DNA of 12,204 bases from Oceanihabitans sp. Its GTDB lineage: Bacteria; Bacteroidota; Bacteroidia; Flavobacteriales; Flavobacteriaceae. Of this stretch, positions 1 through 8,037 are shown one piece after another. Within the stretch, counting starts at the first letter, position 1. Each line of letters opens with the position of its first letter. A program made the translations under genes and the position numbers. The stretch spans positions 1 through 12,204 of the forward strand of contig JAGPUY010000432.1 in NCBI GenBank assembly GCA_018067265.1. The letters run 5' to 3'. Below the pieces are notes generated by a model. The model worked only from the letters and a program-made list of their open reading frames with translations. It had not been told where the DNA came from and made no database searches.

Positions 1-1065
1 GTTTGGGTAGATTATGATAATGATGGCGATTCCGATATGTTTATTGCTAAATGTAGAGGTGGAAATGTAACCCATAAAATAAATGAACTTTGGCGTAATG
101 ATGGAAACGGTGTATTTACCAATGTTGCTGCCAATCCAGGTGTAAACCTTGCCGATCCTGTGCAAACTTGGTCTTCTGCTTGGGCAGATTATGACAATGA
201 TGGAGATATGGATGCATACATAGGTGCAAGTTCAAGTTCTGATGGCGCCCACAAATACATGTTAAATGATGGAGATGGTACTTTTACATACGCTACCGCT
301 CCTAGTGGTGCCCCGTACGGTATTGAAAATGCGCCAGCAGATTTCAATAATGATGGGTATGTAGATATTCTATCCAACGGTAGAATCTTACTAAATAATG
401 GCGATAATACGTTTACGGTTCTAAATACAGGAATGCCACCTAGTGGCGCAATTGGGGACCTTAACAATGATGGTTTTTTAGATGTATTTACAAGAACAAA
501 TAATTCAGGTGCACTTTATATAAACAATCCTAACGAAAACAATTGGATTAAAATAAGAACACAAGGAACTCTAAGTAACTATAATGGTATTGGTGCTAGA
601 GTTGAAATAGTTTCCGCTCTTGGAACACAAATTAGAGATGTAAGAAGTGGGGAAGGATTTGAATTTATGAGCAGTCTAAACTCACATTTTGGTATTGGTA
701 CCGATACCGAAATTACAAGCCTAACCATTAAATGGCCTTCTGGAACAGTAGATGTAATTTTTAATCCAAATATTAATGAAACCATCACAGCTATTGAAGG
801 AGACAGCCCTCTTAGTATAAATAATAACACACTAGAAGAAGATCTTGTTATTTATCCAAACCCAGCAAAAGATATGGTTACTATAAGTTCTTCCATAGCA
901 TTAAACAATGCCGTATATACGATTTATGATATTACTGGAAAACAAATTTTAAACGATAACTTAAATTCAAATACCATTAATGTTTCCAAACTAAATTCCG
1001 GTATATATATATTAAAAGTATCCGTAAACGGAAAAAACAAAACACAAAAATTAATAAAGGAATAA
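1..1065 (+). CDS. Secreted FG-GAP / ASPIC-UnbV (CRTAC1-like) repeat protein with T9SS C-terminal sorting domain; 5'-partial (reading frame is open from base 1)
   Basis: Frame 1 is open from the window start (VWVDYDNDGDSDMFIAK...), so the M at 37 is internal. Repeated DxDxDGxxD FG-GAP-type calcium-binding motifs (DYDNDGDMD, DFNNDGYVD, DLNNDGFLD). An UnbV/ASPIC-like block (NWIKIRTQG...GIGARVEIVSALGTQIRDVRSGEGFEFMSSLNSHFGIG). The last ~75 aa (LVIYPNPAKDMVTISSS...GIYILKVSVNGKNKTQKLIKE) match the T9SS Por_Secre_tail pattern. Confidence 0.8.
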   Translation, partial: VWVDYDNDGDSDMFIAKCRGGNVTHKINELWRNDGNGVFTNVAANPGVNLADPVQTWSSAWADYDNDGDMDAYIGASSSSDGAHKYMLNDGDGTFTYATAPSGAPYGIENAPADFNNDGYVDILSNGRILLNNGDNTFTVLNTGMPPSGAIGDLNNDGFLDVFTRTNNSGALYINNPNENNWIKIRTQGTLSNYNGIGARVEIVSALGTQIRDVRSGEGFEFMSSLNSHFGIGTDTEITSLTIKWPSGTVDVIFNPNINETITAIEGDSPLSINNNTLEEDLVIYPNPAKDMVTISSSIALNNAVYTIYDITGKQILNDNLNSNTINVSKLNSGIYILKVSVNGKNKTQKLIKE

Positions 1066-1084
1066 AACGATAAATCTTTCTTAA

Positions 1085-1117
1085 AAGCTCTACTATTCAT
1101 TTATTAGAGCTTTTTTT
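1085..1117 (+). terminator. Rho-independent terminator downstream of the FG-GAP gene
   Basis: Perfect 8-bp inverted repeat AAGCTCTA(1085-1092)/TAGAGCTT(1105-1112) with a 12-nt loop, followed directly by T7 (1111-1117). Confidence 0.7.
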
Positions 1118-1152
1118 ATGCTATTTTTATAGCAATTTAAATTTCACTTAAA

Positions 1153-3324
1153 ATGAAAAAAATAACCCTTTGTTTAATTACACTTATTACTATAATGGCT
1201 TGTAAATCTGTGAAAAAAGTTCAAAAAGAAAGAAATATAACGATTAACTACCCAGAAACTAAAAAAGCAGATACCGTTACCAACTATTTTGGTGTAGATG
1301 TAAAAGATCCTTACCGTTGGCTTGAAGACGATAAAAGTAAAGAAACAGAAGATTGGGTAAAGGCACAAAACCAATCTACATTCGGTTATTTAGACCATAT
1401 TCCATATCGAAAAGAACTAAAAGAACGTCTTGAAAAACTTTGGAATTACGAAAAAGTAGGCGCTCCTTTTACCGAAGGAGATTACACTTATTTTTATAAA
1501 AATGATGGTTTACAAAACCAATATGTCATTTACAGACATGAAAAAGGAAGTAATCCAGATACTGCTGAGGTATTTCTAGATCCTAACAATTTTTCGGAGG
1601 ATGGAACCGTTTCTTTAGGAGGAACAAGTTTTTCAAAAGACGGAAAAACACTAGCCTATGCAATTTCTGAAGGCGGAAGCGATTGGAGAAAAGTTTTGAT
1701 CCTGAATACCGAAACAAAAGAGATTATGGAAGACACTTTAGTAGATATTAAATTTAGCGGTATGTCTTGGTTTAAAAACGAAGGTTTCTATTATTCTAGT
1801 TACGACAAACCTAAGGGAAGCGAACTTTCGGCTAAAACAGATCAGCATAAAGTATACTATCACAAACTTGGTACTCCTCAAAAAGAAGATGCGCTTATTT
1901 TTGGTGGTATACCTTCCGAAAAACATAGATATATCTACGGAACCGTTACAGAAGACAATAAGTACTTGCTAATTTCCCCAAGAGTTTCAACTTCCGGAAA
2001 CAAACTTTACATCAAAGATTTATCCAATCCAAACAATCCGTTAGTCACCATTTTAGAGCATACTGATAGTGACACCTACGTTATCGATAATATTGGTAGC
2101 AAGCTCTTTTTAGTAACGAATCTTAATGCGCCTAATAAAAAAATAGTAACGGTAGATGCTGCAAACCCTACACCAGAAAACTGGAAAGATTTTATTCCGG
2201 AAACGGAGTATGTTTTAAGTCCGTCTAAAGGTGGTGGATATTTCTTTACAGAATATATGGTAGATGCTATTTCTAAAGTAAAACAATATGACTACGACGG
2301 AAAATTCATAAGAGACATTCAACTTCCAGGAGTAGGAAATGCTGGTGGATTCGGCGGAAAAAAAGAAGAGAAAACAGATTATTTTTCCTTTACCAACTAC
2401 AATACACCATCTAGTATTTATACATTGAATGTAGATACTGGCGCGTCTGAATTATACTGGAAACCGAGTATAGATTTCAATCCAGAAGACTATATCAGCA
2501 AGCAAGTATTTTACAACTCTAAGGATGGTACCAAAGTACCAATGATAATTACCCACAAAAAAGGAGTAGAACTAAACGGTAAAAACCCAACCATTCTTTA
2601 TGGTTACGGCGGATTTAATGTGAGTTTAAATCCATCTTTTAGTATTACTAATGCCGTTTGGATGGAACAAGGCGGCGTTTATGCGGTTCCAAATCTTCGT
2701 GGTGGTGGCGAATACGGAAAAGAATGGCATAAAGCAGGAACGCAATTAAAAAAACAAAATGTCTTTGATGATTTTATTGCCGCTGCAGAATATCTAATAG
2801 CAAACAATTATACTTCTAGTGATTATTTAGCAATTCGCGGTGGTTCTAATGGTGGTTTACTAGTTGGTGCAACGATGACGCAACGTCCAGATTTAATGAA
2901 AGTAGCATTACCAGCAGTTGGTGTTTTAGATATGTTACGTTACCACACATTTACAGCTGGAGCAGGTTGGGCTTATGATTACGGAACCGCAGAAGACAAC
3001 AAAGAAATGTTTGAATATCTTAAAGGCTATTCACCGGTACACAATGTAAAAGAAGGCGTACAATATCCAGCAACCATGGTAACCACAGGAGATCATGATG
3101 ATCGCGTGGTACCAGCACACAGCTTTAAATTTGCAGCAGAATTACAAGACAAGCAAACAGGAAATAATCCTACATTAATTAGAATTGAAACCGATGCAGG
3201 TCATGGCGCTGGAACTCCGGTTAGTAAAACCATTGAGCAATATGCAGATATTTTCGGATTTACATTATACAATATGGGATTTGATGTGCTACCAAGTAAA
3301 ATGAAAGAAAAAATAAAAGGATAA
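1153..3324 (+). CDS. Prolyl oligopeptidase (peptidase S9A family) lipoprotein
   Basis: 723 aa. N-terminal lipoprotein signal ([19 protein letters not shown], Cys after the hydrophobic core). N-terminal beta-propeller region. C-terminal alpha/beta hydrolase with the GGSNGG nucleophile-serine motif ([14 protein letters not shown]), then Asp (TTGDHDDRV) and His (TDAGHGAG), which is typical of the S9 catalytic triad order Ser-Asp-His. Confidence 0.9.
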
Positions 3325-3407
3325 CTATTATAGTATACTACTCGCATTTAGCTTCCGAAACTTTAGCCAAGGTAGTATCGAAGTGTCTATTTTAATTTAA
3401 TAGTACT

Positions 3408-3442
3408 AAAACCGTTCTTCTTAAAAGTTGCGCGGTTTTTTT
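3408..3442 (+). terminator. Probable terminator after the prolyl oligopeptidase gene (A-tract/stem/T-tract, possibly bidirectional)
   Basis: AAAACCG...CGCGGTTTTTTT. Imperfect stem AACCG(3410-3414)/CGGTT(3433-3437) followed by T7. It shares the TTCTTAAAAG motif with the region just upstream of the 1085 terminator. Confidence 0.4.
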
Positions 3443-3446
3443 ATGG

Positions 3447-3454
3447 TATTTTTG
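3447..3454 (+). promoter_or_regulatory. Bacteroidota sigma-A type -7 element (TAnnTTTG) for the ABC ATPase gene
   Basis: TATTTTTG at 3447-3454 matches the TAnnTTTG consensus exactly. A TTG sits ~19 nt upstream (3428-3430). The ATG at 3459 follows within ~5 nt, implying a leaderless or near-leaderless mRNA, which is common in Bacteroidota. Confidence 0.4.
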
Positions 3455-3458
3455 CAAA

Positions 3459-4370
3459 ATGCTGCAAGTAAAAAACATCTCCTTTTCTTACAATAAAACT
3501 CCTGTTCTAAAGGATATTTCCTTTACCGTAAAACCTGGAGAACACCTTTCTATTATTGGTGAAAGTGGGTCTGGAAAAAGCACTTTACTAAAAGTGCTAT
3601 ACGGACAATATGATATAGAAAAAGGAAACATTTTTTGGAAAGACGAAGAGATTCTTGGACCAAAACACAATCTAGTTATTGGTTATAATTTCATGAAATA
3701 CGTAGCGCAAGAATTTGATTTGATGCCATTTATTTCTGTCGAAGAAAATATAGGGAAGTTTCTGTCTCGTTTTTATCCGGAAGAAAAACAAAAACGTGTC
3801 GCAGAATTAATGAAGGTTGTAGAGCTTACCAAGGTTGCAAAAACCAAAGTGAAGTTGCTTAGTGGCGGACAAAAACAACGTGTTGCCCTTGCAAGAGCTT
3901 TAGCAAAACAACCTGAAATTATTTTACTGGATGAACCTTTTAGTCATATCGATAATTTTAAAAAACAATCCCTTCGTAGAAGTGTTTTTAAATATTTAAA
4001 AGAAAATAATATTGCCTGTATTGTTGCCACACACGACAAAGAAGATGTATTGGGTCATGCCGATAAAATGATTGTTTTAAACAACCACAAAATAGCCGTT
4101 AACGCCAGTCCGGAAAACTTATACCTAAACCCAAAAACACCTTTAGTCGCTTCCTTTTTTGGAGAATTTAATGTGATAGATGATCAGATTATTTATGCGC
4201 ATCAATTGCAAGTAGTGGAACAATCCGATTTAGAAGTAATCGTTAAACAATCCTATTTTAAAGGGAATTGTTATTTAGTAGAAGCAGATTGGAATGGTGA
4301 AACTCTTTTTTTTGAACATCCTTCAGCGGTTATCGAAAACGAAAAAATACTTCTAAAAATAGCATTATAA
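3459..4370 (+). CDS. ABC transporter ATP-binding protein (PotA/FbpC-like, C-terminal TOBE-like domain); no permease gene adjacent
   Basis: Walker A GESGSGKST, ABC signature LSGGQKQRVALARAL, Walker B ILLDEPFSHID, and H-loop ATHD. The ~80-aa C-terminal extension is typical of importer ATPases. Confidence 0.85.
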   Translation: MLQVKNISFSYNKTPVLKDISFTVKPGEHLSIIGESGSGKSTLLKVLYGQYDIEKGNIFWKDEEILGPKHNLVIGYNFMKYVAQEFDLMPFISVEENIGKFLSRFYPEEKQKRVAELMKVVELTKVAKTKVKLLSGGQKQRVALARALAKQPEIILLDEPFSHIDNFKKQSLRRSVFKYLKENNIACIVATHDKEDVLGHADKMIVLNNHKIAVNASPENLYLNPKTPLVASFFGEFNVIDDQIIYAHQLQVVEQSDLEVIVKQSYFKGNCYLVEADWNGETLFFEHPSAVIENEKILLKIAL

Positions 4371-6086
4371 ATTCACTCTTTCTGCATACCGCAAGCCATT
4401 AGGTAATTCCATAGATGAAAATTCTAAATGTAAAACACGTCTTCTTTGTTGTGTTTGCGTTTCCGAAGAAGCATGTAATAAGAATGGTTTTATTAATTGT
4501 ACGCCGCCAGCTGCGACTTCACTTACAAAAGGAATGGAGTTGTTTACAATCAACTTAATTTCTGCATCCCTTAATCTTTTATTTTGGGATCCAGGAATGA
4601 CTTTTAATGCACCATTTTTAATCGTTGTATCGTCTAAATGAATTCGCATGGAAAACGTGTTTTTAGATATTTCTTCTGTCGGACAAACACTAATCACACC
4701 CTTTTTATTAGTCCAAGATGTAAAACCTTCTGTTTCTTTTTTCTCAGTCACATTAATCGGCACATCTTGATGCCAAGTCACATACCAATTATCTTTTGGC
4801 GACTTATCAAAATAAATAGCTTTGGTTAAAAACATTCCTTTGCCAATAGATTTTATTAGTTTTTTAAAATTCTTATTAAACAAAATCTCTTTTATTTCTG
4901 GCATTTTATGCAACACTTCGCGCATACCAAAAGCTTGCTCATCATGCTCTCTAATATAGGTGTCTAACCGAGCTTTTAATTTTCGAATATCCCGTTTTGT
5001 ATACACATGATTTAAAATTCCATAGCCTTTATATGCCAATCGTTTTGCAATGGTTCTCAAATTCTTGTCATTAATTTCCGTTTCATAAGCATCTACAGCA
5101 TCGCACAAACGTTCTTTAATATTTCTTTTTAAACGTTCTGGGGCAATCACTTTTATGCCTTCGCCAAGACCTAAAATTTCTTTTTCTAATTCAAAATTAA
5201 GCTGCACATCTAAAGAAATAGTTACACCGTAATTATCGCGATTCACTTCTTTTTGTGAAGCGTGAAAAGGCTTTGTTAACACATAAGGTGCCTGTTTGTG
5301 ATTTACATAAAGTAACACTTTTTCTGGTTCTAAATTTGGACTTACAGAAACACCAATTGCATTTTTATAATAGGTTTCTGTATTAAAGGTTTCATCTAAA
5401 ACAAAGGCCTTTTCACTTTTATTAATAGCGATTATTCTATCTAAAGCCAAGTTCATTAAGCCTTCGTTTTTAAGTCGCTTTCCTATAACAAACCATCGGT
5501 TTCTAAACTCTTTTAGCAAATACGGATGAAAGGTAAAAGTGCTTTCGTGACGCGCTTTAAAAGATTGATACGTAATGTCTATAGCTTCCTTTTTCAGAAT
5601 AAATTGATACAAGGTGTCTAAAAACTTTAATCCTTTTAAGTTTTCATTTTTCTCGAAATCTATTAACGATTTCTCTTGTGTTTTTTGCGTGTATACATGA
5701 TCTTCTAATTTCTGAACCATACTTCCTAACTCCTCAAAATGCGAAAAACCTTGAAACTGTTTTAAAAAAGAAACTGCTTCTGAAAGCTTACTTAAATCTT
5801 GATTAGAAATCGGACTATTCGTAATACTATAATCTTCATCTTCGTATTTATAATATTTTCTATCATATACTTTTATTGGCGCATTATATCCCAACTTATC
5901 ACTTCGCATCATTTGCAAGTCTAGTTGTACTGTGCGTTTACTAACATCTACGTCCTTGCCTTCATACTCGTAAAGTGCATCCGAAACTGCTTCAATTAAA
6001 TCGTTAAGTGTCCATTGTCTAAAATTATTTTGAAGACATTTATCTATGGTTTTATATCGAATTAATGCGTTTTTATTGACTGCCAT
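4365..6086 (-). CDS. wHTH-WYL domain regulator fused to a C-terminal PhyH-family Fe(II)/2-oxoglutarate dioxygenase domain
   Basis: 573 aa in one frame. N-terminal DNA-binding-like region (MAVNKNALIRYKTIDKCLQ...TLNDLIEAVSD...SKRTVQLDLQMM). WYL signature (FHPYLLKEFRNRWFVIGKRL...LALDRIIAI). C-terminal ~240 aa carry PhyH/EctD-like motifs: WHQD (HxD iron ligands), IHLDDTTIKNGALKVIPGSQ, and a distal LHASS...RRRVLHLEF (second His and 2OG-binding Arg). The last 6 nt overlap convergently with the ABC ATPase stop. Confidence 0.8.
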   Translation of the reverse strand: MAVNKNALIRYKTIDKCLQNNFRQWTLNDLIEAVSDALYEYEGKDVDVSKRTVQLDLQMMRSDKLGYNAPIKVYDRKYYKYEDEDYSITNSPISNQDLSKLSEAVSFLKQFQGFSHFEELGSMVQKLEDHVYTQKTQEKSLIDFEKNENLKGLKFLDTLYQFILKKEAIDITYQSFKARHESTFTFHPYLLKEFRNRWFVIGKRLKNEGLMNLALDRIIAINKSEKAFVLDETFNTETYYKNAIGVSVSPNLEPEKVLLYVNHKQAPYVLTKPFHASQKEVNRDNYGVTISLDVQLNFELEKEILGLGEGIKVIAPERLKRNIKERLCDAVDAYETEINDKNLRTIAKRLAYKGYGILNHVYTKRDIRKLKARLDTYIREHDEQAFGMREVLHKMPEIKEILFNKNFKKLIKSIGKGMFLTKAIYFDKSPKDNWYVTWHQDVPINVTEKKETEGFTSWTNKKGVISVCPTEEISKNTFSMRIHLDDTTIKNGALKVIPGSQNKRLRDAEIKLIVNNSIPFVSEVAAGGVQLIKPFLLHASSETQTQQRRRVLHLEFSSMELPNGLRYAERVNL

Positions 6087-6124
6087 ATTCTTAAGTTTTT
6101 AAGCGGAATTAAAAATAAAAAATT

Positions 6125-6145
6125 ACTACGCAAAAGCTCTGCGTA
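6125..6145. repeat. Palindromic intergenic repeat, family 1 copy (ACTACGCA-AAAGCTC-TGCGTA)
   Basis: TACGCA(6127-6132)/TGCGTA(6140-6145) inverted repeat with a 7-nt spacer. It has the same ACTACGCAAAA... head as the copies at 7179 and 10605. Confidence 0.6.
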
Positions 6146-6452
6146 AACACAAAAAAAATCAAAATAGGATAGATTTTAAATTAATCCTTACTTTTTTCAA
6201 AAAAATATAATACTTCGTATTATGCGATCCAATTTTAAGTGCTTTGAAAATTAAATTTGGAAAAGTCGAAAATAAAATTAGATATTTGCAGCGCAATGTC
6301 GTGTTAACCACAGTCAAAGCACAACCAAAATTTAGAATTAATAATTAGAAACTATGCGTTTATTTATAACATATCCAATCGATCCTAAAGGAATACCTCC
6401 TTTGGTGATGCTTCGTGATTATCGTTAGATAAACGTTTCCATTTTATAAATG

Positions 6453-6492
6453 AAAAACCCGAAGCAACTTAAAAACTGTTTCGGGTTTTTTG
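6453..6492 (+). terminator. Rho-independent terminator-like hairpin in a long intergenic region (possibly bidirectional)
   Basis: AAAAACCCGAAG...CTGTTTCGGGTTTTTTGTTTT. Stem CCCGAA(6458-6463)/TTCGGG(6480-6485), extendable with A:T pairs, followed by T6. The A-tract on the 5' side allows function on either strand. It lies 25 nt downstream of a 24-codon ORF (6355-6429). Confidence 0.5.
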
Positions 6493-6556
6493 TTTTCAGA
6501 CCTTAGCAAACCTGCTAAACACATTTCCAAAAACAGTTATAAAAAAGAATCGTATT

Positions 6557-6584
6557 GTCATGCTGAGCTTGTCGAAGCATCTCC
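6557..6584. repeat. GTCATGCTGAGCTTGTCGAAGCATCTCC motif, resembling the short GC-rich intergenic repeat class widespread in Bacteroidota (...TGAGCG.AGTCGAAG...)
   Basis: A GC-rich island in AT-rich intergenic DNA. ATGCT/AGCAT 5-bp inverted ends around GAGCTTGTCGA. Called from memory of similar motifs, not from a search. Confidence 0.25.
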
Positions 6585-6607
6585 ATACGTTCAAAACTTA
6601 AATGACG

Positions 6608-6626
6608 TCCTGAAATAAATTCAGGA
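6608..6626. repeat. Palindrome family 2 copy (TCCTGAA-ATAAA-TTCAGGA), 18 nt upstream of the 6644 ATG
   Basis: Perfect 7-bp arms TCCTGAA(6608-6614)/TTCAGGA(6620-6626) with a 5-nt spacer. The same arms recur at 10660-10680. Confidence 0.6.
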
Positions 6627-6643
6627 TAAAAAAAACCAAAATA

Positions 6644-7174
6644 ATGGACACGAATTTGTTAAACAACTACGTGCTTAAAGCTATAGATGCTTATCCATAC
6701 GAATTAGAAGAAACCGTAGAAAATCTAAACTACGCCTTGTCTTACGAAAGCAATAATGCCTACGCCTTATTTTTAATGGCACGTTTACAAGCGGAACAAT
6801 TTGGAGACTACGAAAAAGCAAAGCAGTATTTCGCGGAAGCTTTAGCTAATAAAATGGATTTTCAAAGAGTATATCCAAAATACATACAAGTATTACTGGA
6901 TAATGAGGATTTAGTGGAAGCCAAAAAACTAATCGATTTTGCCCTAACCGTAAAAGGCATAGATAAAGGTGCTATTTGGGAGAAACAAGGCCAACTTTTT
7001 GAAATAAAACAAAAGTATAAAGCAGCAATTAAAGCACTAAAAAAAGCAAAACAATTTGGATTTAACACCGATTTTATAAGCTATATAGATTCTGAAATTT
7101 CTAGAAACAAAAGCAAACTAAAACCTAAGAAGAAAAAATCTAAAGGCAAAAAAAAGAAGAAAAAGAAAAAATAA
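6644..7174 (+). CDS. TPR-like helical repeat protein with a C-terminal poly-lysine tail
   Basis: 176 aa. TPR-like segments (YALFLMARLQAEQFGDYEKAKQYFAEALA). The C-terminus is KPKKKKSKGKKKKKKKK, encoded by a long A/G homopurine tract (7131-7171). Confidence 0.6.
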   Translation: MDTNLLNNYVLKAIDAYPYELEETVENLNYALSYESNNAYALFLMARLQAEQFGDYEKAKQYFAEALANKMDFQRVYPKYIQVLLDNEDLVEAKKLIDFALTVKGIDKGAIWEKQGQLFEIKQKYKAAIKALKKAKQFGFNTDFISYIDSEISRNKSKLKPKKKKSKGKKKKKKKK

Positions 7175-7178
7175 TTTT

Positions 7179-7199
7179 ACTACGCAAAAACATTGCGCA
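7179..7199. repeat. Palindromic intergenic repeat, family 1 copy (ACTACGCAA-AAACA-TTGCGCA), directly after the stop of the 6644 gene
   Basis: TACGCAA(7181-7187)/TTGCGCA(7193-7199) with one mismatch relative to a perfect palindrome. It is followed by ...AATATTTGCAG (a -7-like TTTG element) ~10 nt downstream, the same arrangement as at 10605-10641. Confidence 0.6.
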
Positions 7200-7265
7200 A
7201 TAGCGTGGAATATTTGCAGAGTAATTAGTAAGAAGCTTTTTTTGGAATCAGGCTTCTACAGAAAT

Positions 7266-7294
7266 ACTCCACCAGACGAGGAAGCTGGTGGAGT
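7266..7294 (+). promoter_or_regulatory. Perfect 10-bp stem hairpin (ACTCCACCAG / CTGGTGGAGT) in the leader of the small ORF at 7313; function unknown (attenuator or terminator without a strong U-tract)
   Basis: ACTCCACCAG(7266-7275), loop ACGAGGAAG, CTGGTGGAGT(7285-7294). GC-rich relative to its surroundings. A second hairpin AGAAGC(7224-7229)/GCTTCT(7244-7249) lies just upstream. Confidence 0.4.
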
Positions 7295-7312
7295 TTAATA
7301 AAAGAGAAAAAT

Positions 7313-7618
7313 ATGAAAACAAATGGAACATTTAAATCAGATACTTTTCTGAATAAAAATTTAGAGTTTTGGAAGGCTTTAGAAATAGTATGTGTTGTTG
7401 AATGTTGTGGAATTGATGCTTTTGACTTTAGCAAAGAAACAATTCAAAAGAAGATATTAGATTACAATGAATTAGACATCATTTACAATATTGAATCATT
7501 AATCTATGAAATAGATAATTCAAAATTGGATAGAATATCTAGCTATCTATTTCATGTTTATGAAGACAAAAACATATTTAAAAACAGAATGAATAGAATC
7601 TTAATAGCTTTAAAATGA
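7313..7618 (+). CDS. Small hypothetical protein (101 aa) with a CVVECCG cysteine cluster, immediately upstream of the tRNA-like array
   Basis: Intact ORF with coding-like periodicity, very AT-rich, and no recognisable domain. Confidence 0.45.
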   Translation: MKTNGTFKSDTFLNKNLEFWKALEIVCVVECCGIDAFDFSKETIQKKILDYNELDIIYNIESLIYEIDNSKLDRISSYLFHVYEDKNIFKNRMNRILIALK

Positions 7619-7642
7619 AACTCAAAAAAATAACGATTAGAT

Positions 7643-7694
7643 GTTTACTCGCATTGTAAACGAGAGTTTGCAGGTTCAAGTCCTGCTTCTCAAA
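7643..7694 (+). ncRNA. tRNA-like module A: anticodon-type hairpin (loop ATTGTAA; U33, UGU, A37) + 5-nt variable + T-arm GCAGG-TTCAAGT-CCTGC + 3' strand TTCTCAA; no matching 5' acceptor/D-arm upstream
   Basis: Stem CTCG(C)(7648-7652)/ (A)CGAG(7660-7664), with a 7-nt loop that has a canonical U33/A37 layout. T-arm at 7670-7686 with a TTCAAGT loop. The upstream sequence does not form a D-arm or pair with the 3' strand. Confidence 0.35.
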
Positions 7695-7700
7695 CAAAAC

Positions 7701-7838
7701 GGAAGCATGGAGCAATTGGTTGGCTCTCCTGACTGAAATGCCTTTTTAGGCATTCAACGATTCCTATTTAAAAAATAGAAATCATTGAGTTAAAATTAGG
7801 TCTTTTAAAGCTTGTAGGTTCGAGTCCTACTGCTTCCA
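7701..7838 (+). ncRNA. tRNA-like module B: acceptor 5' GGAAGCA + U8 + D-arm GAGC-AATTGGTTG-GCTC, then an 86-nt insert of hairpins in place of the anticodon arm, then T-arm GTAGG-TTCGAGT-CCTAC + acceptor 3' TGCTTCC (7/7 pairs with 7701-7707) + A
   Basis: The D-arm has U8, A14 and G18G19. The T-loop is TTCGAGT. The acceptor strands are perfectly complementary but 130 nt apart. The insert (7728-7813) holds three hairpins (AATGCCT/AGGCATT; CTATTT/AAATAG; TTAAAA-TTAGGTC-TTTTAA). 138 nt is too long for a tRNA and too short for a group I intron. Confidence 0.4.
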
Positions 7839-7971
7839 CATCAAGCGAGTCTTGTTAAGTGTTTCGGTATAGCACTATTGTATAAATCCTTGCGGTTTCG
7901 CATAAGGTTTTTATATCCAACTTGACTTGAAGGCTTTGGTTATTAGCCAAATAATAACCACATCTATCTAC

Positions 7972-8024
7972 ACAGGTTCGAATCCTGTCTTCATTAATTT
8001 GAAGTAGCTAAGTCTGGTTAAGCA
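7972..8024 (+). ncRNA. tRNA-like module C (permuted topology): T-arm ACAGG-TTCGAAT-CCTGT, then 3' acceptor strand CTTCA looped by TTAATT onto 5' strand TGAAG, then TA(8-9), then D-arm GCT-AAGTCTGGTTA-AGC
   Basis: The T-loop is TTCGAAT. The acceptor stem is a closed hairpin (5 bp, 6-nt loop). The D-arm has U8, A14 and GG. The order T-arm, acc3', loop, acc5', D-arm is that of a circularly permuted tRNA with a capped acceptor. Confidence 0.45.
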
Positions 8025-8037
8025 ATAGATTCAATAT

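Follow-up and report, generated by a model that had tools for sequence, protein, structure and literature searches.

The DNA considered here is a stretch of 12,204 nt from Oceanihabitans sp. (Bacteroidota, Flavobacteriaceae; GenBank assembly GCA_018067265.1, contig JAGPUY010000432.1, positions 1 to 12,204 of the forward strand), hereafter the window. Its central feature is a gene for a 573-aa protein that combines a transcription factor of the winged helix-turn-helix (wHTH)-WYL-WCX class with an oxygenase of the PhyH family, and that very probably controls RNA-repair genes. The gene occupies positions 4365 to 6086 of the minus strand (stop codon 4365-4367, ATG start), as defined by its open reading frame (ORF), Pfam matches, and full-length homologues. 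A 557-bp intergenic region separates it from a divergent series of plus-strand features, which comprises a TPR gene (6644-7174), a DUF6331 gene (7313-7618; Pfam E-value 1.8e-19), an ORF-free interval of 916 bp, an SPFH/Band-7 gene (8535-9635; Pfam), an inserted 275-aa ORF, and a gene for an RtcB-family RNA ligase (10679-12100; Pfam and NCBIfam). The identical NCBI protein derives from a metagenome-assembled genome (MAG) and is annotated as 'WYL domain-containing protein [Oceanihabitans sp.]'.

Three Pfam domains, all exceeding their gathering cut-offs, were recognized in the protein, namely WYL, WCX, and PhyH. The WYL domain (residues 155-220; positions 5427-5624, minus strand) was matched by PF13280 (E-value 4e-11, 43.2 bits against a cut-off of 21.8) as well as by the PADLOC WYL model (1.4e-22), and the WCX domain lying C-terminal to it (residues 254-327; 5106-5327, minus strand) by PF25583 (E-value 2e-6, 28.3 bits against 23.9). 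No Pfam HTH model matched the N-terminal ~90 residues (5817-6086, minus strand), which are extremely conserved and contain many invariant positions; here the presence of a wHTH is predicted from structure alone. An AlphaFold2 (AF2) model built from 20 homologues (mean predicted local distance difference test score, pLDDT, 78; predicted template modelling score, pTM, 0.49) displays a helix-helix-helix-strand-strand arrangement over residues 5-81, and Foldseek aligned residues 1 to ~335 with full-length DriD (8tp8, E-value 9e-12) and also with PafBC. No NCBIfam model matched the 573-aa protein, and a direct sequence search of the PDB with the whole protein returned no significant match.

The remainder of the chain, residues ~335-573 (4368-5084, minus strand; isoelectric point, pI, 9.7), constitutes a PhyH-type Fe(II)/2-oxoglutarate (2OG) oxygenase domain, as indicated by Pfam, alignments, a PDB profile, and Foldseek. 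PF05721 covers residues 388-551 (E-value 8e-11, 43.1 bits against a cut-off of 22; profile positions 50-213); the divergent N-terminal helical portion of the domain lies beyond this profile, yet it is present in the AF2 model, where residues 340-573 reach a pLDDT of ~85-90 and adopt the double-stranded beta-helix fold. When the C-terminal 240 residues were compared with known structures by Foldseek, AviO1 (4xaa, template modelling score 0.72), HygX, SnoK/SnoN, proline hydroxylase H11, EctD, and PHYHD1 were recovered, with a probability of 1.00 for AviO1, HygX, EctD, and PHYHD1. PhyH was the sole oxygenase family found in Pfam, and no AlkB or TET structures appeared among the best 50 Foldseek matches, so that membership of the AlkB or TET/JBP groups is not indicated.

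The residues expected at the active site are well preserved. A family alignment of 20 sequences shows no variation at H439-Q-D441 (within WHQD), H538 (within LLHASS), S540, or R549, and in a set of 181 sequences, weighted toward close relatives, the triad H439/D441/H538 is kept in 176-179, S540 in 175, and R549 in 178. When a profile of the C-terminal domain was compared with the PDB, H538/S540/R549 corresponded to H264/S266/R275 of human phytanoyl-CoA hydroxylase (PAHX, 2a1x), which we take to be metal and 2OG ligands, and WHQD to the PHQD of PHYHD1. Serine at +2 and arginine at +11 from the distal histidine (S540 and R549) reproduce the pattern of ligands for the 2OG C5-carboxylate. The domain looks catalytically competent in the 573-aa protein and in most of its relatives, and in Oceanihabitans sp. 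it is probably a working enzyme. By its testable defining features, the protein is a member of both the wHTH-WYL-WCX regulator class and the PhyH oxygenase family. The preliminary description, made from the sequence without database searches, had proposed just this union of wHTH, WYL, and PhyH in one polypeptide, with a WHQD...LHASS triad and a 2OG-binding arginine; Pfam, AF2, and Foldseek bear out the architecture, the family alignment and the PDB profile bear out the active site, and the profile match by which it had suggested verifying the C-terminal half is above the gathering cut-off.

The compact PhyH oxygenases that are closest in structure, including AviO1, HygX, SnoK/SnoN, EctD, proline and leucine hydroxylases, PHYHD1, and PAHX, share with this domain the fold, the HxD...H triad, the Ser/Arg 2OG site, and a size of ~220-250 aa. 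They differ in being stand-alone enzymes of 12-19% identity that act on small molecules, whereas the domain described here is strongly basic and forms part of a transcription factor.

Relatives of the protein are widespread in the phylum. At least 588 loci encoding one were found in a scan of one genome per species, and the best 80, on which all locus analyses are based, belong to Flavobacteriales, Cytophagales, Saprospiraceae, Chitinophagales, and Bacteroidales. Olleya, Algibacter, Winogradskyella, Psychroserpens, Lacinutrix, Flavivirga, and Flexithrix are among the sources of the best 120 protein database matches (61-97% identity). Excluding fragments, 118 remain; they measure 572-589 aa, and WYL, WCX, and PhyH occur together in nearly all of them. 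Both the linker and the oxygenase domain are conserved in the 20-sequence alignment.

The preliminary description had pointed to the neighbourhoods of homologues as the place to look for conserved partners, and such partners exist: genes upstream of the regulator, usually divergent from it, recur across orders and are dominated by RNA repair. Searches by tblastn with the window proteins, together with de novo clustering of ORFs over the 80 loci, recovered RtcB in 50 loci, SPFH/Band-7 proteins divergent from the regulator in 26, the TPR protein in 21, the RlaP nucleotidyltransferase, usually as a tandem pair, in 14, a PrfH-like RF-1-domain protein in 11, and Ro60 (TROVE plus vWA) in nine. A calcineurin-like phosphoesterase and a few unassigned families are also recurrent near the regulator. 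In many loci the RtcB start lies merely 110-200 bp from that of the regulator. The locus is accordingly RtcB-centred, with RtcB, SPFH, and tRNA-like elements in the window and Ro60, RlaP, PrfH, and the phosphoesterase in relatives. Burroughs and Aravind reportedly catalogued RtcB-centred RNA-repair and ribosome-rescue systems, and the neighbouring genes are such components; in 2016 these authors are said to have described Band-7 with b7a-tRNA, Ro60 with Y RNA, RlaP, and PrfH together with RtcB, which the genes of the window and of related loci match. Band-7 with 'b7a-tRNA' and Ro60 with Y RNA have been described as adjoining RtcB (bioRxiv 10.1101/312249), PrfH-RtcB systems have been found to carry TPR accretions, and the accreted TPR proteins and proteins with highly charged tails were regarded as possible ribosome or rRNA binders (PMC6514570), and a PrfH-CT subfamily has been defined in Flavobacteriia (PMC12829566). 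PADLOC applied to the neighbouring genes returned generic WYL models only and no defence proteins. The genes on the other side of the regulator, which encode an ABC ATPase, a prolyl oligopeptidase, and an FG-GAP protein, represent local synteny only.

A 19-bp palindrome with the consensus TACGCA-N7-TGCGTA (hereafter the box) links these genes to the regulator. The palindrome that the preliminary description had placed at 6125-6145 is present as TACGCAAAAGCTCTGCGTA at 6127-6145 (box 1), 41 nt upstream of the regulator ATG, where it is likely to serve as an autoregulatory operator, and the same motif recurs at 7181-7199 and 10607-10625. Box 2 (TACGCAAAAACATTGCGCA, 7181-7199, plus strand) lies right after the stop codon of the TPR gene and is followed at a distance of 9 nt by the -7 motif AATATTTG (7209-7216); it is the predicted promoter for DUF6331, the tRNA-like RNAs, and the SPFH gene, the latter a likely member of the regulon. 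Box 3 (TACGCAAAAACATTGCGTA, 10607-10625, plus strand), located 54 nt upstream of the RtcB ATG and likewise followed after 9 nt by a -7 motif (CATATTTG, 10635-10642), is the predicted promoter of RtcB, which is likely the main target. Counting up to two mismatches, the window contains three boxes, all intergenic, against 0.26 expected, and none of 200 shuffles contains three. Over the 80 loci (1.36 Mb), 90 boxes with at most one mismatch compare with 1-5 in shuffles, an enrichment of ~30-fold, and all but four of them fall between called ORFs.

The distribution of the box follows the repair genes. When up to two mismatches are allowed, 53 of 80 regulator genes have it in the 150 nt upstream, as do 40 of 57 RtcB genes, eight of nine Ro60 genes, and 10 of 12 genes of a family designated 'f6'; 20 of 26 SPFH genes have it within 1200 nt upstream, where it precedes the tRNA-like RNAs. 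Upstream of the ABC genes (0 of 16) and the peptidase genes (0 of 11) in the 80 loci it was never found, and the ABC ATPase and prolyl oligopeptidase were rejected as candidate targets, their synteny being limited to close Flavobacteriaceae. The box stands 38-44 nt upstream of the regulator gene in most related loci, and orthologues devoid of the oxygenase (loci L075 and L077-L079) keep it at 39-42 nt from the start codon. A conserved, predicted operator upstream of the protein's own gene agrees with what is seen in the DriD/PafBC class.

The promoter geometry is equally strict. The spacer of the box is conserved and asymmetric, reading TACGCAAAAAGAyTGCGyA toward the repair genes. In that direction, and not on the other side, the distance from the box to the end of the TTTG in the Bacteroidota -7 promoter motif is exactly 17 nt in 78 of 93 cases and 18 nt in six more. 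The box thereby spans roughly -40 to -22, the place of the -33 element, and no recognizable -33 element is present. The possibility that the box acts as an RNA hairpin or terminator was rejected for the repair promoters: it lies upstream of the -7 motif and is therefore not transcribed there, its stem has 6 bp, and it is not followed by a T-run.

DriD of Caulobacter crescentus, a wHTH-WYL-WCX activator of a non-SOS DNA-damage response, is the best structural match to residues 1 to ~335 and offers the closest functional parallel. Its consensus, ATACGAC-N7-GTCGTAT, has an A/T-rich centre. DriD regulates its own gene, whose promoter contains such a site (PMC10853764), and the DriD site covers the missing -35 position at a constant distance from -10 (PMC13004042). 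The box resembles this arrangement in its plan (TACGCA-N7-TGCGTA), its A/T-rich centre, its occurrence ahead of the regulator's own gene, and its placement at -33. The two proteins are otherwise distinct: DriD has 14-19% identity, 327 aa, and no enzyme domain, senses single-stranded DNA, and controls DNA-damage genes, while the 573-aa protein possesses an additional oxygenase of 240 aa and an RNA-repair regulon. PafBC, CapW, and BrxR share the same three-domain core; PafBC differs in forming a heterodimer or tandem fusion that recognizes a non-palindromic motif only together with RNA polymerase, and CapW and BrxR differ in being repressors beside phage-defence systems, where the window has RNA-repair genes.

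Taken together, these features make it very probable that the 573-aa protein binds the box, regulates its own expression, and controls the RNA-repair genes. The near-invariant wHTH fits the near-invariant box, and a box ~40 nt upstream of the regulator's own start implies autoregulation. Our confidence in a regulatory role is high, and that in an activating mode, drawn from the geometry, is appreciably lower, though activation is still the likelier mode, since the strict phasing of box and -7 motif favours DriD-like activation over repression. The association with an RNA-repair locus and the assignment of the box as its likely operator go beyond the preliminary description.

On balance, the best overall explanation, which we consider somewhat more probable than all others combined, is a DriD-like regulator of an RNA-repair regulon equipped with an accessory oxygenase. 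The protein would be the dedicated transcription factor of an RNA-repair and ribosome-rescue regulon of Bacteroidota, and its N-terminal two-thirds (wHTH, helical linker, WYL, and WCX) would work in the manner of DriD. A dimer would bind the 19-bp box, which would replace the -33 element at a fixed distance from -7, and the targets would be RtcB and the unit of SPFH and tRNA-like RNAs, joined in relatives by Ro60, RlaP, and PrfH-linked genes. Binding of single-stranded nucleic acid by the WYL domain would switch the factor on, the ligand in this case probably being RNA fragments or damaged RNA ends, as the regulon and the analogy with RtcR suggest; the activated factor would then recruit RNA polymerase to promoters without a -33 element. 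With low confidence, the oxygenase, situated next to the WYL/WCX site, may act on or bind the nucleic-acid-derived signal or nearby nucleic acid, and might thus tune, terminate, or oxidatively process the signal, making the response dependent on O2, Fe(II), and 2OG.

Several observations count against parts of this scheme. Binding of the box by the 573-aa protein is deduced, and another factor could occupy it; the choice between activation and repression depends solely on promoter geometry; and characterized WYL regulators mostly bind single-stranded DNA. The arrangement of the domains in the AF2 model is of low confidence (the pTM cited above), and the model therefore gives nothing on whether the WYL pocket faces the active site. 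Furthermore, the oxygenase has been lost or inactivated repeatedly, which shows catalysis to be dispensable for the core function. The C-terminal domain is detectable by tblastn in 71 of the 80 loci; eight lack it, with no PhyH gene within 10 kb. Among 72 proteins of at least 450 aa, the H-D-H triad is intact in 60 and degenerate in 11, one being cut by a contig end, and the 11 degenerate forms, from Aureispira and other Saprospiraceae, Bacteroidales, a Chitinophagales MAG, and others, also carry internal deletions. Domain loss or catalytic inactivation has occurred in about one-quarter of the sampled lineages. On a rough neighbour-joining tree of the N-terminal 332 residues, short forms are scattered over four or more positions between fused ones, and repeated loss of the oxygenase is therefore indicated. 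Because orthologues without the domain, or with a dead version of it, occupy the same loci and carry the same box, the oxygenase is an accessory module and not part of the regulator core. Probable anaerobes (Bacteroidales, Mangrovibacterium) account for several of the losses and inactivations, a pattern that would suit an enzyme in need of O2, although the sample is small and aerobic lineages have lost the domain too.

Readings diverge on what the oxygenase acts on, and here too some of the evidence runs counter to a nucleic-acid substrate. The characterized relatives closest to it in sequence and structure act on amino acids, sugars, or CoA esters, all of them small molecules. A search with the domain alone against 1.84 billion cluster representatives gave 2253 matches at E < 1e-3, of which the best 150 are mostly stand-alone proteins of 215-262 aa with 33-45% identity. 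These share the metal and 2OG ligands as well as the invariant residues F426, K428, N433, W434, W458, R481, H483, D485, and H553, which suggests that their substrate is similar. The sharing of likely pocket residues, namely K428, W458, R481, H483, D485, and H553, combined with unrelated and varied neighbourhoods, favours a common small-molecule substrate over an RNA-derived one.

These same features lend weight to a different role, in which the domain is a small-molecule 'trigger enzyme' or second sensor that gates a DriD-like factor, comparable to the aminotransferase-like domain of MocR/GabR; it would bind or turn over a metabolite, or report Fe(II), 2OG, or O2, and nucleic acid would not be its substrate. 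Stand-alone homologues with the same invariant pocket occur in housekeeping-like contexts, such as a coupled DapB-PhyH-HPPK arrangement, and the dead yet retained domains of 11 lineages fit a binding or regulatory function. Such a role leaves the shift in charge unexplained: fused domains have a median pI of 9.57 (range 8.6-9.85, n = 119) compared with 7.1 for stand-alone homologues, those with a degenerate triad stay basic (8.5-9.9), and the N-terminal part of the 573-aa protein has a pI of 6.6. It also sits uneasily with a regulon that contains no metabolite-related gene and with a full catalytic set under strong purifying selection in most lineages. The positive charge of the fused domain suggests contact with nucleic acid, and because of this charge shift and the tethering beside WYL/WCX, we tentatively read the oxygenase as acting on or binding the nucleic-acid-derived signal or neighbouring nucleic acid, while giving the small-molecule alternative equal, and equally limited, credence. 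Protein hydroxylation receives little weight, and what is left of the weight goes to a domain without functional coupling to the regulator. The narrower proposition that the domain directly oxidizes RNA or a nucleotide derived from it, namely the damage signal to which the WYL domain itself would respond, seems unlikely; the ribose or base at damaged ends could be oxidized, for example, or an alkyl lesion removed.

Two attempts to deduce the function of the oxygenase from its homologues gave no lead. The neighbourhoods of four stand-alone homologues (P0123, P0133, P0138, and P0201) are mutually unrelated and none concerns RNA repair, and other PhyH fusions (DUF6884-PhyH and those with uncharacterized N-terminal domains) were equally uninformative. 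The sole operon-like context among these four neighbourhoods is that of P0133 (41% identity), whose gene sits between dapB and the HPPK gene folK in translational coupling, with stop and start codons that overlap (locus L083, 1070-3035).

With regard to the mode of action of a DriD-like factor, repression of the CapW/BrxR kind, in which the protein would sit on its promoters until a ligand releases it, is rather doubtful. The box does overlap the core promoter region, it lies just ~40 nt from the regulator's own ATG, and many wHTH-WYL-WCX factors are repressors (PMC11662680). Repressor sites usually tolerate variable placement, however, whereas here 78 of 93 boxes across orders are phased to the single nucleotide, with a fixed spacer orientation and no recognizable -33 element, much as at DriD promoters; activation is accordingly the preferred mode.

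A protein hydroxylase role for the oxygenase, whether the target is the regulator itself, RNA polymerase, a repair protein, or a ribosomal or translation factor, is improbable. The regulon is translation-related, and 2OG oxygenases acting on translation proteins are known (YcfD, PPHD/EF-Tu, OGFOD1), but YcfD, PPHD, and OGFOD1 are of the JmjC or PHD type and not of the PhyH type, and no conserved partner protein is common to all loci. As an account of the fusion itself, an assembly or frameshift artefact, or an accidental joining without functional coupling, has a negligible likelihood: dispensability of the domain in some lineages is all that speaks for absent coupling, nothing speaks for an artefact, and the linker and domain are conserved. 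Full-length fusions occur in complete genomes, in many genera, in independent assemblies, and in several orders, and the near-uniform length of 572-589 aa with the same three domains argues against a frameshift-fused gene pair, the possibility for which the preliminary description had asked that homologues be inspected; of split genes there is a single instance, a probable frameshift in locus L034.

The task assigned to the DriD-like regulator resembles that of RtcR, the CARF-sigma54 activator of rtcBA or rsr-yrlBA-rtcBA, which likewise serves an RtcB operon, possibly with Ro60 and tRNA-like RNAs, and which senses damaged tRNA fragments (PMC7790460). The two are unrelated, in that RtcR consists of CARF, AAA+, and HTH domains, depends on sigma-54, and has no oxygenase, whereas the 573-aa protein is built as wHTH-WYL-WCX and has no Pfam or NCBIfam match to CARF or sigma-54 AAA+ domains. 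Enzyme-transcription-factor fusions as such form an established category that includes Ada, MocR/GabR, PutA, and BirA, all of which share the concept of DNA binding and an enzyme or enzyme-derived signal domain in one polypeptide, albeit with unrelated folds and chemistry, and none of which is known to join a WYL sensor to an oxygenase. The combination of WYL with an oxygenase is new, but the sense-and-modify function suggested in the preliminary description stays hypothetical, and to call it a new type of protein is an overstatement.

None of the papers that could be searched describes the WYL-oxygenase/PhyH architecture, its link to RNA repair, the box, or its geometry; an earlier mention by Burroughs and Aravind in 2016 is possible, as a later paper cites that work in connection with WYL domains. 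Database labels are generic ('WYL domain-containing protein', 'phytanoyl-CoA dioxygenase family protein', 'YafY/ectoine hydroxylase-related dioxygenase'). The regulated RNA-repair system is of an already known kind, and the regulator-oxygenase combination and its link with RNA repair are new. To our knowledge, nothing is known of how bacterial RtcB/PrfH systems are switched on outside the proteobacterial RtcR. The biochemistry of RtcB and PrfH in RNA repair and ribosome rescue is under study (PMC12829566, PMC9223846), and the locus described here provides a candidate answer to the question of control for a whole phylum, with a regulator, a 19-bp predicted operator of defined geometry, and a predicted regulon of RtcB, SPFH, tRNA-like RNAs, Ro60, RlaP, and PrfH-linked genes. 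It would extend WYL regulators from the control of DNA damage and phage defence to RNA damage, and raises the question of whether a WYL factor can use an RNA ligand. The apparently active fused oxygenase would add a step dependent on O2, iron, and 2OG to a transcription factor, and lineages in which the domain is intact, dead, or absent are natural comparison sets that make its contribution tractable. Should the oxygenase oxidize RNA or nucleotides directly, it would be the first nucleic-acid oxygenase of the PhyH family and the first transcription factor to process chemically the nucleic acid that induces it, uniting damage sensor and repair enzyme in a single chain in the way that Ada does for DNA alkylation.

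Further features of the locus and its relatives deserve mention. In nine loci (L017, L020, L028, L039, L044, L047, L048, L067, and L080), Ro60 (TROVE plus vWA) is directly downstream of the box, and on this arrangement is a predicted WYL-controlled Ro60 of Bacteroidota. In four Flavobacteriaceae loci (L004, L010, L013, and L055), a 767-aa signal-peptide gene is inserted between box and regulator (~7690-9996 in L004), 3-5 nt upstream of the latter and in the same direction, so that the box stands ahead of a two-gene unit. The TPR gene, which accompanies the locus in Flavobacteriaceae, encodes a lysine-rich tail in which the C-terminal ~30 residues are nearly all lysine, and it is kept in the window though PrfH is absent.

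Between box 2 and the SPFH gene, a cluster of tRNA-like RNAs occupies 7609-8130 (plus strand) and is a likely member of the regulon. It contains four T-arm repeats (AGGTTCGAGTCCT) and was recognized by Rfam tRNA matches of up to 39.8 bits at 7609-7694, 7701-7838 (where the anticodon loop carries an insertion of 57 nt), 8004-8055, and 8066-8130, together with a weak match to YrlA at 7944-8048; ARAGORN called no tRNAs over the cluster. [quoted passage not shown] The region is 74-85% conserved at the DNA level across genera, loci L001, L019, L025, L068, and L077 likewise have tRNA-like elements between box and SPFH gene, and the cluster is preceded by a leader (7217-7300) with hairpins at 7231-7257 and 7268-7293.

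The intergenic region beside the regulator contains another conserved element of ~300 nt (6187-6500, plus strand), with a promoter-like ATATTTG of its own (~6283-6289), a hairpin AAAGG/CCTTT (~6378-6394) that shows compensatory changes between genera, and a 24-codon ORF (6355-6429) that stays in frame in diverged loci and is followed by an intrinsic terminator (6451-6497). It could be a small RNA or a micro-protein gene. Sister genera have it between 'f6' and PrfH, two genes that the window lacks.

Three observations concern the interval between SPFH and RtcB. The Flavo-1 RNA motif (RF01705) matches 9671-9765 on the minus strand with 35.7 bits, below the gathering score of 42, and reaches 55.2 bits in Olleya (L001, 3418-3494, plus strand); in both genomes it is placed between SPFH and RtcB, antisense to the operon, and this position inside an RNA-repair locus may hint at the role of Flavo-1. 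The inserted 275-aa ORF (9777-10604, plus strand) lies in a patch of low GC content (26-30%), and none of the 80 related loci contains a counterpart. PADLOC matched it weakly to a CARF-HEPN model (E-value 0.004, residues 160-235), and it has an R-x4-H motif (RNELIH); it may be a HEPN RNase inside the RNA-repair locus. Finally, a perfect hairpin, ATCCTGAA-TCCAG-TTCAGGAT, extends over 10660-10681 (plus strand) and ends in the RtcB start codon, and the corresponding position of L055 has ATTCTGAA...TTCAGAAT, a compensatory change; this arrangement suggests translational control of RtcB.

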